Shown: positions 30,422 to 64,000, numbered from the stretch's first letter. The stretch: DNA of 64,000 nt from a virus (IMGVR_UViG_3300032092_000001); one strand, 5' to 3'. Numbers and translations: made by a program. Notes: generated from the sequence alone by a model not told the origin.

Positions 30422-30613
30422 TTAAATTAATACCACAATTTTACCATTAATAGTTTTCGGTATTCCATTATCGTATTCAAATTCCACAAATTCTTGTTTT
30501 AACAAATATTCAGTTATGTAATCATTGATGGGATAATAACTCAAACAATCAACAATTGGTTTTTCTTTTGAGTTGTACTTATAATACCCAACCTCATAAT
30601 CCCATATCGTCAA
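30422..30613 (-). CDS. Small hypothetical protein (probable TTG start at 30613 rather than 30796)
   Basis: Fills the gap between the flavoprotein and gp25 genes; the upstream part of the tracked ORF overlaps the flavoprotein gene. Confidence 0.35.
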   Translation of the reverse strand: MTIWDYEVGYYKYNSKEKPIVDCLSYYPINDYITEYLLKQEFVEFEYDNGIPKTINGKIVVLI

Positions 30614-31361
30614 TGAATTTTTTGTGGGACTTTTTGTAAGAAGATTTACTTTCGTCATTAGAATCTGTTGTATATTGCCAATTCCAATATAGTTCCTTGT
30701 TTGGTTCAAATCCATAGAATTTATGAACTTCCATTTGGGTTTCGGTAACATTCTCACCATTCCAGTTTTGACCAACACAAATAAAACCTGTCTCAATACC
30801 TTCGACTATATTCTTTTCACCTAAAGTAGTGTGTCTACTTTCAATCCAATTCAATCTTTCTATAAGATTTTGATAGAACATGTTAGCCTGTCCCCACCTT
30901 ACCGAACTAAAGAATATTACTGCATCAGACTCAAAAAGTTCTTTAGAAACTTTCCATAGTTCGTCAGTTTTATTATTTAAACTTGCCCAACATCTGTGAT
31001 GTCCTGAAGGGTTTTTTTTATCATCTTTAAGTAAAGATTTTAAGATACCACAACTATTACCTTCTTTTCTTGACACATTACCTTCACAAGGAAAAATCTT
31101 GAGTTCTGAAACATCCATAAAAACTGATTTATCCCCAAGTTCTTCATTCAGGTACATAGCGATTAGTTTTGATTTAGGAACATCAATTTGTTTAGGGTCC
31201 CAATTAAACCTATTTGAACAACTTAACAATAAAACTTTTTTCTTGTTTTTTAAAATGTCTAAAGTTTGTTTTAGTTTCTTAGCACCATCATCTTGGACTA
31301 ATTCTTCCAAAAGCATCATTTTTCTTATTTTTTCAATTTCTTCCTGAATAATATTAGACAT
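30594..31361 (-). CDS. Flavodoxin-fold protein (NAD(P)H-dependent FMN reductase / iron-sulfur flavoprotein-like) with acidic N-terminal leader
   Basis: VLLLSCSNR...SKLIA FMN loop; FPCEGNVS...SCG...RCWAS; LFESDAVIFFSSVRWG. Confidence 0.75.
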   Translation of the reverse strand: MSNIIQEEIEKIRKMMLLEELVQDDGAKKLKQTLDILKNKKKVLLLSCSNRFNWDPKQIDVPKSKLIAMYLNEELGDKSVFMDVSELKIFPCEGNVSRKEGNSCGILKSLLKDDKKNPSGHHRCWASLNNKTDELWKVSKELFESDAVIFFSSVRWGQANMFYQNLIERLNWIESRHTTLGEKNIVEGIETGFICVGQNWNGENVTETQMEVHKFYGFEPNKELYWNWQYTTDSNDESKSSYKKSHKKFIDDMGL

Positions 31362-31365
31362 ACCG

Positions 31366-31372
31366 ATAAATA
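31366..31372 (-). promoter_or_regulatory. TATTTAT element (putative late promoter)
   Basis: 4 nt before ATG at 31361. Confidence 0.6.
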
Positions 31373-31382
31373 GTTTATAAAC

Positions 31383-31409
31383 AAAAAAAATCCCGACCTA
31401 GCTCGGGAT
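31383..31409 (-). terminator. Intrinsic terminator after nrdA
   Basis: ATCCCGA-6 nt loop-TCGGGAT stem followed by a T-tract on the minus strand. Confidence 0.8.
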
Positions 31410-31432
31410 AACACATCGGATGTTTTAAAAGT

Positions 31433-61375: not shown

Positions 61376-61404
61376 TTGATAAATATCTATTTTTTACTTA
61401 TTAT
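61376..61404 (+). promoter_or_regulatory. Sigma70-like promoter candidate for the SNF2 helicase
   Basis: TTGATA-N17-TATTAT; the -35 box overlaps the minus-strand TATTTAT. Confidence 0.45.
61379..61385 (-). promoter_or_regulatory. TATTTAT element (putative late promoter)
   Basis: 4 nt before ATG at 61374. Confidence 0.6.
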
Positions 61405-61427
61405 TACGATAATGTAATTTTGGAATT

Positions 61428-63188
61428 TTGGAAACAGGAAAACAACATTTAAGTATTGAGCAAGAAGCAATTGACCTTTTAGAAAAATATGAAGGGTCAA
61501 ACAACTATATACTTAGAATTAAAAAACAATGTGAGTCTAATAAAAAACACATTCCCACAAGGGCTCAATGTGAATATGTTATAACGTATTATAAAACAAC
61601 ACCTAAAGTTGCAAAAAAATGGGTTGACATTGATTCATACTTTTCAAAAAAACTTGTGGAAGATAATCCATTCATTAAGGAACCTGATAAAATCTATATT
61701 GAGAAATTACTCGTTGAGAAAGATAAGTCTTATCATATATGGGGTAAGGTTTTTAGTGGTGACACTATTCACGATTTTTGGGTACCTAAAGCTGCGGTAA
61801 TTAAGGAGTATAAAGAAAACATTGTTAATGTTGATTATTCAAAATACGATAATCGTCCCCCACTGTTTCACCAAAAGGAAGCAATTGAAAAGTTATTGAA
61901 GAATGATAAGTTCATATTGGCAGATGATATGGGACTAGGAAAGACAACTTCAACTGTTATCGCATCGTTGGAGAGTGGGTCTAAAAAAACTTTAATTATC
62001 TGTCCGGCATCTTTGAAGATAAATTGGGAGAGGGAGATTAAGAACTACACTGATAAGACGGTTTATATTTGTGAGGGTAAGAAATTTGAAGACGCTGACT
62101 ATATCATTACAAACTATGATATATTAAAAAACTTTCACGACCCGAAAGATAAAGAAAACTCAATACTTTTAAAATCAAAATTTGATTTGGTGGTTATTGA
62201 CGAAGCCCATTATGTGTCTAACGCTCAGGCTCAGAGGACAAAAATCATTATGGACCTAACCAAGAATATTAAAAAACTTTGGTTGTTAACAGGTACTCCG
62301 ATGACCTCACGTCCAATGAATTATTATAACATACTGAAGTTAATTGATAGTCCTGTTAGTCAGAATTGGATGGCATACGCAATCCGTTATTGTAATGGAT
62401 ATCAATTTAGAGTTGGTAGTAAAAAAGTTTGGAATGTCACAGGAGCGTCTAATTTAGAAGAATTACGAGATAGAACCTCAAGACAAATTCTTCGTAGATT
62501 AAAGACGGATGTTTTGGATTTACCCGATAAAATTATGACACCCGTTTACCTTCGTTTAAAATCTCGTTTATATGAAGGACTTATGGGTGAGTATTATGAT
62601 TGGTATAATAATCGTCAAGACGAATCAAAATCATTGTCCGTACAGTTTACAAAATTGATGAAAGTTAGACAGGTTCTTGCCGAAGAGAAAATATCTCACA
62701 CAATTGAGCTTGCTGAAAACATTATTGAGCAAGGTAAGAAAGTTATTATTTTTAGTAACTTCACTGAACCTTTAAAAAAGATACACGAACATTTTGGTAA
62801 AAAATCAGTTTATTTAGACGGGTCAACCACAAAACCTGCAAGACAAGATGCTGTTGATAAATTTCAAGAAAGTGATAAGATACAGGTGTTTTGTGGAAAT
62901 ATTAAAGCAGCGGGGGTTGGTTTAACATTAACCGCGGCTGAAGCATGTATCATGAATGACTTATCATTTGTACCTGCGGAACACAGTCAGGCAGAGGACC
63001 GAGCGTATCGTTACGGACAAAAAAACACAGTTTCAATCTACTATCCAATTTTTGAGAATACGATTGAAGGGGTAATTTACGATATTTTAGATAGAAAAAA
63101 GAAAATCATCGGAACTGTTATGGGGGACTTACAAGAAACTGATGCAGACATTGTGGAACAAATCTTGAAAGAAATCAATAATAGGTAA
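61428..63188 (+). CDS. SNF2-family (HARP/SMARCAL1-like) helicase/translocase
   Basis: LADDMGLGKT, DEAH, LTGTP, GLTLTAA, QAEDRAYRYGQ. Confidence 0.93.
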   Translation: METGKQHLSIEQEAIDLLEKYEGSNNYILRIKKQCESNKKHIPTRAQCEYVITYYKTTPKVAKKWVDIDSYFSKKLVEDNPFIKEPDKIYIEKLLVEKDKSYHIWGKVFSGDTIHDFWVPKAAVIKEYKENIVNVDYSKYDNRPPLFHQKEAIEKLLKNDKFILADDMGLGKTTSTVIASLESGSKKTLIICPASLKINWEREIKNYTDKTVYICEGKKFEDADYIITNYDILKNFHDPKDKENSILLKSKFDLVVIDEAHYVSNAQAQRTKIIMDLTKNIKKLWLLTGTPMTSRPMNYYNILKLIDSPVSQNWMAYAIRYCNGYQFRVGSKKVWNVTGASNLEELRDRTSRQILRRLKTDVLDLPDKIMTPVYLRLKSRLYEGLMGEYYDWYNNRQDESKSLSVQFTKLMKVRQVLAEEKISHTIELAENIIEQGKKVIIFSNFTEPLKKIHEHFGKKSVYLDGSTTKPARQDAVDKFQESDKIQVFCGNIKAAGVGLTLTAAEACIMNDLSFVPAEHSQAEDRAYRYGQKNTVSIYYPIFENTIEGVIYDILDRKKKIIGTVMGDLQETDADIVEQILKEINNR

Positions 63189-63189
63189 G

Positions 63190-63196
63190 TATTTAT
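63190..63196 (+). promoter_or_regulatory. TATTTAT element (putative late promoter)
   Basis: 5 nt before ATG at 63202. Confidence 0.6.
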
Positions 63197-63201
63197 TATT
63201 G

Positions 63202-64000
63202 ATGAAATCGTTAAATTTATTATCAGAATCTTTAATACAAAAAATAACGGGGGAAAAAAGTTTACCTGAAACTAAGTTTTTTATCAATGAGATGAAAACA
63301 ATTGGTATTGAGAAATTACCATACGGGTATGCATCTTTACGAAGATTTATTGACCCTGAGACTATGAAATTCCACTATCAAAAACATTATAAGGGTTACG
63401 TTAATAAATTAAACTCAGCTCTACGTAAAAAAGAATATGGTGATGTTGAGTTAGAAAAAATTGTTAAACAAATCTCAAAATATAACACAACCATTAGAAA
63501 TAATGCGGGTGGAGCATTTAACCACGCATTGTTTTGGAAAATGTTATCACCAACACCTCAAAAACCAACAGGAGAAATTTTAGACAAAATAAAAAAAGAT
63601 TTTGGAAGTTATAGAGAATTTAAAGAAAGATTTGAATCAGTTGCTAAAAAGAGATTTGGTTCAGGGTGGGTTTGGTTAGTAATAACTAAAGGTGGTAGAT
63701 TAAAGGTGATGTCAACTCAAAATCAAGACAACCCATTAATGAATATTTTTGATAAAGGTGGATTCCCTGTTTTAGGTTTAGATTTATGGGAACACGCTTA
63801 TTACTTAAAATATCAAAACAAAAGAGACGAATACATTCAAAATTTTTGGGATGCAATTAACTGGAAATTTGTTAACGAATTATTTTTATCAAAAACAAAA
63901 AAAGAAGAAACAATTACCGAATCATTTATGATTAACGAACAAAAAGAGTCATACACTCCAATAGGTAAGGCGATTCAAAATTACATGTTTATTTTGAGTA
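63202..64000 (+). CDS. sodA: Fe/Mn superoxide dismutase (Mn-type signatures) with N-terminal leader and C-terminal extension; runs off the right edge
   Basis: Manual translation: LPYGY...MKFHYQKHY, RNNAGGAFNHALFW, FGSGWVWL, NQDNP, DLWEHAYY; all four metal ligands present. Confidence 0.93.
   Translation, partial: MKSLNLLSESLIQKITGEKSLPETKFFINEMKTIGIEKLPYGYASLRRFIDPETMKFHYQKHYKGYVNKLNSALRKKEYGDVELEKIVKQISKYNTTIRNNAGGAFNHALFWKMLSPTPQKPTGEILDKIKKDFGSYREFKERFESVAKKRFGSGWVWLVITKGGRLKVMSTQNQDNPLMNIFDKGGFPVLGLDLWEHAYYLKYQNKRDEYIQNFWDAINWKFVNELFLSKTKKEETITESFMINEQKESYTPIGKAIQNYMFILS

Follow-up and report, generated by a model that had tools for sequence, protein, structure and literature searches.

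The question raised by this 64,000-nucleotide stretch of viral DNA (IMGVR_UViG_3300032092_000001; the whole stretch is referred to here as the window) is why three of its enzymes, an Fe/Mn superoxide dismutase (SOD), a flavodoxin-like protein and a HAD-like protein, should each begin with a peptide that stands ahead of the catalytic fold and ends in Glu. The first-pass annotation had proposed, by analogy with the internal proteins of phage T4, that these leaders route the enzymes into the phage head, and had added an acidic protein as a fourth bearer; when the coordinates were re-checked, all four peptides were found where it had placed them. The cargo proposal itself is borne out in part, since relatives of the source virus encode a T4-type prohead protease and capsid protein and several arguments point to a cut site in the SOD, but the leaders do not amount to one signal. 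The best explanation overall, which we hold at slightly less than even weight, is that the three enzymes are made late as leader-tagged precursors, that the SOD would be a head-cargo polyprotein, and that the other two plausibly take the same route.

The SOD gene (63202 to beyond 64000, + strand) is an intact reading frame that runs off the end of the window. Its identity is solid: Pfam Sod_Fe_N begins at residue 37 and Sod_Fe_C extends to residue 226 (PF00081, 9.5e-23, 80.9 bits; PF02777, 5.4e-41, 139.2 bits; both above cut-off), and the four metal ligands can be picked out by eye as His in FHYQKH, His in NHALFW, and Asp and His in DLWEH. Ahead of the fold lies a leader of 30 residues (63202..63291, +) whose last residues are FFINE (63277-63291), followed by the SOD domain and the first part of a linker (63292..63924, +). 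Comparison with cellular homologues, the check that had been suggested for the leaders, showed that they lack this one: alignments to cellular SODs, and to most of those from phages, begin no earlier than about residue 31-36. In a set of 54 variants, identity per column is 53% over the leader and 80% over its last five residues, and the Glu at P1 is present in every one; the residue after FFINE is Met in 40 variants and Ala or Ile in 14. Synonymous codon changes in the leader far exceed non-synonymous ones among relatives (1187 versus 356 single changes), as they do in the leaders of the flavodoxin-like (1748 versus 292) and HAD-like (161 versus 66) genes, and all three leaders are therefore to be regarded as real translated coding sequence.

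Relatives of the window are numbered in hundreds in IMG/VR, in lake metagenomes, and include contigs of 240-322 kb; the head genes were looked at in five large ones, G001-G005. All five encode a member of the gp21 family of proteases (PF03420, Peptidase_S77, above cut-off), 34% identical to T4 gp21, and a gp23-type capsid protein (PF07068). The site S(F/H)LINE↓(A/S), in which the arrow marks the putative cut, is found in the capsid protein of each, and when capsid N-termini are aligned by BLASTP the T4 sequence SFLTE↓AEIGG lies over SFLINE↓AASTAD. The Glu of SFLTE is residue 65 of the T4 protein, and it is after this residue that T4 gp23 is cut. Within the whole proteome of G001 (266 proteins, 75,724 residues) the pattern F[FLIVM]INE occurs only twice, once at the capsid site and once at the junction between leader and SOD.

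A second site of the same protease type, FMINE↓Q (63925..63939, +), occurs where the window SOD reads on past its fold (...SFMINE↓QKESY...), in the linker to a C-terminal domain of about 260 residues whose start occupies 63940..64000 (+) and which continues past the window end. In relatives the SOD takes one of two forms, of about 235 residues, ending before the linker, or of 500-513 residues, with the extra domain of about 260 residues. Although the linker varies in other respects, every long form carries a hydrophobic-hydrophobic-x-E site there (YMINE↓G, KLLYE↓N and KVLSE↓G are examples), so that the fused SOD appears to retain a putative cut site between its two domains. The C-terminal domain also stands alone, in proteins of 294 residues whose first 30 residues read MKN.E.K..LIIE.I...LVLSE↓S. 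A hidden Markov model (HMM) of the SOD leader matches this stand-alone leader end to end (E 3e-5 to 2e-2), with no further protein in that search below E 0.2; one leader type is thus present on two unrelated domains. The domain itself has invariant E182, D215, Q228 and K230 (alignment A3), a pattern that resembles the PD-(D/E)xK nucleases (an example is L220:3730-4512). It gave no Pfam match and no PDB sequence match, there was only a weak PDDEXK_5 lead in Atlas, and no paralogue was found in G001.

A comparable protein is already on record in a cultured Pseudomonas jumbo phage, PA5oct (MK797984). The product of EST35_0261 (L275:535-1083), annotated as 'hypothetical', is Fe/Mn-SOD-like and starts MNDSIKKYISIAE↓AASS, a 13-residue leader that ends I-A-E↓A (...YISIAE↓A). 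The gene is marked 'ESI-MS/MS' in its GenBank record, a flag that in the PA5oct paper denotes a gene product found in virion particles; that paper makes no mention of SOD, and no leader cleavage of EST35_0261 is reported in its accessible text (Lood et al. 2020, PMC7318152). PA5oct also encodes a PF03420 protease, and a gp23-type capsid protein with the site RFLVE↓N. The two cases are therefore alike in having a SOD-like protein with an N-terminal peptide ending in x-Glu, together with protease and capsid protein of these families and, for PA5oct, the virion mass-spectrometry flag; they are unlike in that EST35_0261 is only about 23% identical to the window SOD over the aligned part and has no C-terminal domain. 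Another small structural protein of PA5oct, EST35_0150, starts MKINDIITE↓G. On a freshwater phage contig whose SOD has a cellular-type start, no PF03420 protease was found.

Processing of the SOD by a protease and sorting by its leader are favoured because these observations converge, namely the mimicry of the capsid site, the site in the linker, the reuse of the leader on the C-terminal domain, and the PA5oct precedent. On the evidence of these sequences it is about an even chance that the SOD precursor is head cargo processed by the prohead protease.

The timing of expression can be judged from the heptamer TATTTAT, which the first-pass annotation had noticed 4-5 nt before the ATG of each enzyme. 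This observation holds: the element ends 4 nt before the flavodoxin-like ATG (31366..31372, -), 5 nt before the HAD ATG and 5 nt before the SOD ATG (63190..63196, +; the same spacing is seen in relatives). Upstream of the HAD gene there are two copies (56252..56269, -), of which it is the proximal one that lies 5 nt from the start. TATTTAT is not raised in number over the whole window (37 versus 49.7 +/- 6.7 in shuffled sequences). In the sense orientation it lies no more than 45 nt upstream of 17 of the 40 window genes, where 0.45 would be expected, and other 7-mers of equal composition stand upstream of genes at most six times. The genes that carry it are those for sheath, tube, wedge and fibre-like proteins, some small unknowns, and the three enzymes; none was found upstream of the window genes for primase, NrdA, NrdB, helicases, the RNase H-like protein, UvsX/RecA or gp32. 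Its place is kept in relatives even though the flanks have diverged, and to all appearances TATTTAT(A) serves these phages as their late promoter element. The late element of T4, TATAAATA, is a different sequence and has no copy upstream of window genes. Since TATTTAT lies only 4-6 nt from the ATG at ten window sites, the late mRNAs are probably leaderless or nearly so. The 17 window sites of TATTTAT(A) include those at 805, 3562, 5726, 12407(-), 30362(-), 53829(-) and 61385(-).

The flavodoxin-like gene (30594-31361, -) had been labelled a flavoprotein. The predicted fold agrees, with FMN reductases, NQO2 and azoreductases as the closest structures (mean predicted local distance difference test score, pLDDT, 66; Foldseek E 5e-6, template-modelling score about 0.45), and homologues bear the JGI name 'multimeric flavodoxin WrbA'; on the other side, neither Pfam nor PDB gave a sequence match. 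The body of the protein (30594..31304, -), of predicted FMN-reductase/WrbA-type fold, has invariant C48, C92, C104, H122 and C124, partly within an insertion modelled at low confidence (residues 93-129), and this Cys/His set may be a metal or iron-sulfur site. The leader, residues 1-19 ending MMLLE (31305..31361, -), adds about 19-22 residues and ends L-L-E. M16 and E19 are invariant, giving a site M-(L/I/V)-x-E with Glu, Asn or Asp as the next residue, and pLDDT is below 50 for residues 4-22. Distant homologues lack this leader, as would be expected of a phage addition: P0211 and P0205 begin at the first strand, and P0127 and P0130 at the preceding helix. These distant N-termini came from an exhaustive search of representatives, a word-index search having given close relatives only.

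Two homologues link this protein to the T4 capsid-targeting sequence (CTS). P0133, 45% identical and encoded on a 2.4-kb contig of 23% guanine plus cytosine (GC), starts MKTYFEFLNDDLSEE, that is MKTYFEF..., which is CTS-like in that T4 IPII and IPIII begin MKTYQEFIAE. At L349:209-4687 (IMGVR_UViG_3300033076_001273) six genes have MKHIKLFEEFVNE-like starts, near the T4 capsid-targeting sequence, and this array surrounds a flavodoxin-like homologue of 516 residues. A further homologue, P0126, starts MRRLADLLLE↓A. Because the case rests on the start of P0133 and on the homologue within the CTS-like array, support for the window protein is indirect, and its assignment as protease-processed head cargo is put forward tentatively, as a possibility well short of an even chance.

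The HAD-like gene (55431-56246, -) had been called a HAD phosphatase. That label stands as far as the predicted fold and the motifs go, and draws no support from Pfam or from PDB sequences, in neither of which a match was found. The phosphatase body (55431..56225, -) contains the motifs DWDDN, T120 and SDDD, and D23, D25, T120 and D237-239 (motifs I, II and IV) are invariant. The model has a mean pLDDT of 83; Foldseek gave no clear match to it in the PDB, and an exhaustive VIA-align search did give one, the T4 Pnkp 3'-phosphatase (Z 10.5, root-mean-square deviation 3.5 over 132 residues), followed by Pnkp1 (Z 10.0), T4 PNK (Z 9.7) and then many HAD enzymes. From the model, the protein belongs in the HAD superfamily and is a predicted phosphatase. 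The leader site, which had been placed after KEE, fits better after the invariant E7, at the end of the heptapeptide MKVYLVE (56226..56246, -), as MKVYLVE↓N. The first residues differ between variants, whereas P3 is in every case Leu, Ile or Val and P1' is usually Gly; residues 1-15 are modelled at a pLDDT below 50, and structural alignments start at residue 14-15. A homologue from a huge phage starts MIKKFNQFLE↓N. The case for this leader is weak because it has only seven residues, and it is doubtful that the HAD protein is processed as head cargo.

The pathway that would account for these features is as follows. Driven by TATTTAT, the three enzymes would be synthesised late as precursors, each headed by a leader peculiar to the phage, and the amphipathic 30-residue leader of the SOD would carry its precursor into the scaffold core as this assembles. 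There the prohead protease of gp21 type would cleave behind Glu at two places, FFINE↓M and FMINE↓Q, which would be copies of the capsid maturation site, so that SOD and the second domain of about 260 residues would be set free within the capsid and would travel along with the DNA. The same route may be taken, with lower confidence, by the flavodoxin-like protein (cut after MMLLE) and by the HAD protein (cut after MKVYLVE), each by means of a short leader of its own. Core binding, cleavage, head residence, ejection and an antioxidant role are all steps that we infer. That all three enzymes form a single cargo system is, taken as a whole, rather unlikely.

Several observations weigh against this pathway. 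The protease and capsid genes are seen in the relatives and not in the window itself. A protease of the same family is present in Vibrio phage 2.275.O, whose SOD is leaderless, and the link between leader and protease is therefore not absolute. The stand-alone C-terminal domain could owe its leader to a fused form from which SOD was deleted in frame, and the leader would then be a relic and no sign of function. At the flavodoxin-like site P1' is acidic or Asn, as against Ala, Ser or Gly at sites of capsid type, and the HAD 'leader' is merely 7-14 residues long. No common tag is detectable in the three leaders: when HMMs of each were run against the 266 proteins of G001, they found only the proteins themselves, and the idea of one leader common to the three enzymes was dropped. 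The claim that early enzymes lack such leaders is only partly true, as NrdB begins MEKILVE↓N and so has the same loose motif, ILVE↓N. Furthermore, (L/I)-x-E is a common tripeptide in a proteome rich in Glu, Ile and Lys; [ILV]-x-E occurs in 114 of 266 internal 35-residue windows in G001.

These last points, the shortness of the HAD extension, the motif in NrdB, the want of a common tag and the frequency of [ILV]-x-E, speak for an alternative explanation, in which the extensions are nothing out of the ordinary, being segments peculiar to the lineage with a structural or regulatory role (oligomerisation helices, for instance), the enzymes act in the cytoplasm late in infection, and the hydrophobic-x-Glu endings arise by composition and chance. 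The acidic, Pro-rich protein (39723-40385, -) may be mentioned here: its conserved N-terminal helix ends Y-I-x-E-Q, with I-x-E-Q invariant just before the Pro-rich linker, and the EQE site that had been suggested for it is not conserved, EQD, EQT and EQA occurring also. Counts of N-terminal motifs in G001 give a graded answer. A hydrophobic-hydrophobic-x-E sequence lies in the first ten residues of 28 of the 266 proteins, compared with 12.5 +/- 3.1 internal windows, an excess of about twofold that is real but modest. The stricter start M(x)K(x)-hydrophobic-hydrophobic-[ILV]-x-E is found in eight of the 266, the HAD protein among them, where 0.1 would be expected; this pattern was written after the data had been seen, which tells against its use in support of packaging. 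The N-terminal motif was not found in the tail, sheath, tube and fibre proteins of the window. What the explanation by ordinary extensions leaves unaccounted for is that the SOD leader ends in the rare pentapeptide of the capsid protein, that the linker site is conserved and the leader reused on the stand-alone domain, that P0133 has a CTS-like start, and that the PA5oct protein carries a virion flag. We regard it as unlikely, though deserving of serious consideration.

A very unlikely alternative is that the leaders serve translation, if late mRNAs that are nearly leaderless need an unstructured, A/U-rich 5' end coding for Lys, Ile and Glu, so that late proteins would come to resemble one another at their N-termini. 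The placing of TATTTAT 4-6 nt before the ATG of ten window genes is in keeping with such a role, as is the finding that seven of the eight MKx-hydrophobic-hydrophobic-x-E starts in G001 follow a TATTTAT. Other late genes of equal spacing (such as 3573, 5738, 53818, 61374 and 30350) nonetheless have no such leader or Glu motif, and a codon effect would not call for a leader as long as 30 residues, conserved at its junction and under purifying selection at the amino-acid level.

About as poorly placed is the suggestion that it is the tail or baseplate, and not the head, through which the flavodoxin-like and HAD proteins are associated with the virion, a highly improbable reading to which gene order gives some colour: the flavodoxin-like gene lies beside wedge genes, the HAD gene lies between sheath and tube, and next after the gene for the distant homologue P0133 comes a large one that by eye resembles a baseplate gene, no search having been made. 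Both window genes are, however, separate transcription units with their own promoter-like element and upstream hairpin, and look inserted. A hairpin with a T-run (31383-31407) lies directly upstream of the TATTTAT of the flavodoxin-like gene, a terminator-like hairpin (56271-56298) precedes the HAD promoter pair, and a second terminator-like hairpin lies 3' of the tube gene. The HAD and tube genes (54786-56298, -) each have a TATTTAT of their own and are bracketed by two terminator-like hairpins, and the HAD gene has the look of an insert placed between those for sheath and tube. Neither protein has similarity to a structural domain, and the tail proteins of the window have no such leaders.

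Finally, that the SOD start was mis-called, with translation from Met31 and the leader left untranslated, is scarcely credible and was rejected: Met does follow FFINE in most variants and MKTIGIEKLPY resembles a normal SOD start, but Met31 is not the start because Ala or Ile stands there in the remainder, and together with the synonymous bias of the leader codons and the promoter-like element, which in relatives as well lies 5 nt ahead of the upstream ATG, the comparative data largely refute it, although a second, cytoplasmic SOD product could be made from Met31.

The surroundings of these genes are consistent with a phage of T4 type. The window has a GC content of about 32% and is a stretch of tail, baseplate and replication genes from an uncultured myovirus, with genes for the sheath (56317-59538), the tube, the hub and wedge of the baseplate and fibre-like products of very large size; replication-type genes encode primase, NrdA, NrdB, helicases, an RNase H-like protein, a UvsX/RecA-like protein and gp32. 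No close cultured relative was found in the phage collection by searches for near-identical DNA and for protein. The matches there were distant only, through the sheath, to T4-like phages, cyanophages and Flavobacterium phages. An uncultured freshwater T4-like jumbo phage is the best explanation of the source. Three late proteins of the window (818-1042, +; 8541-8774, -; 11385-12395, -) share an N-terminal G(I/T)PP(F/Y)(Q/E)VY followed by Cys-rich sequence. In G001 (L256-L268) a PPK2-lysozyme fusion (L267:7409-9196(-), PF03976 and PF00959) starts MRNLLTEVSKMKNIMGLTE↓A.

Returning to the head-cargo pathway, its fullest form would be that a family of T4-like jumbo phages, widespread in fresh water, packages an enzyme kit of SOD, a Cys-rich flavodoxin-like reductase, a polynucleotide-phosphatase-like HAD protein and a nuclease-like domain, in the form of polyproteins and precursors tagged by leaders, with cut sites that mimic the capsid maturation site. 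Antioxidant activity and the processing of nucleic-acid ends would in this way reach the cell together with the DNA, or the DNA in the virion would be shielded from oxidation in sunlit water. This full form is improbable as it stands. If it were true, an abundant lake phage lineage would carry metabolic enzymes in its heads, and the capsid-targeting and protease logic of T4 would be a general modular delivery route, extending beyond a few small anti-restriction proteins. In uncultured T4-like phages, head cargo could also be predicted from sequence by a simple rule, mimicry of the capsid site. Literature searches found no paper on a packaged bacteriophage SOD, and the PA5oct record hints that one may already be present, unnoticed, in a cultured phage, where the idea is directly testable.

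Among known systems the closest model is T4 itself, in which IPI, IPII, IPIII and Alt carry a capsid-targeting sequence that is removed by gp21 (Mullaney and Black 1996, via PMC9958956). The likeness lies in presumably late proteins with a short N-terminal peptide ending (L/I)-x-Glu, in a family that has a gp21-type protease and a homologous Glu site in a gp23-type capsid protein, and in the fact that one T4 cargo, Alt, is an enzyme. The differences are that T4 IPII and IPIII share one CTS of ten residues, whereas the leaders here are of 7-30 residues and unlike one another, and that the proposed cargo is SOD, a flavodoxin-like protein and a HAD protein, the SOD belonging to a putative polyprotein of two domains that has a predicted cut site between them. 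The prohead proteases of giant phages cleave at a small residue-x-Glu motif. In SPN3US, phiKZ and 201phi2-1 the propeptides of ejection or inner-body proteins are, according to the abstracts, processed by prohead proteases (PMC5694885, PMC7411985, PMC10052503). As in the pathway proposed here, many head-internal proteins are cut after Glu and delivered to the host, in phages that belong to another lineage and whose abstracts do not name SOD. A viral SOD in a virion is exemplified by the Cu/Zn enzyme A245R of chlorovirus PBCV-1, which is late-expressed and packaged (Kang et al. 2014, via PMC7019647). Although PBCV-1 is a eukaryotic virus, and its enzyme is of an unrelated SOD family with no protease-removed leader described in that secondary account, A245R resembles the SOD proposed here as a late viral SOD carried in the virion, where it is thought to lower superoxide early in infection.

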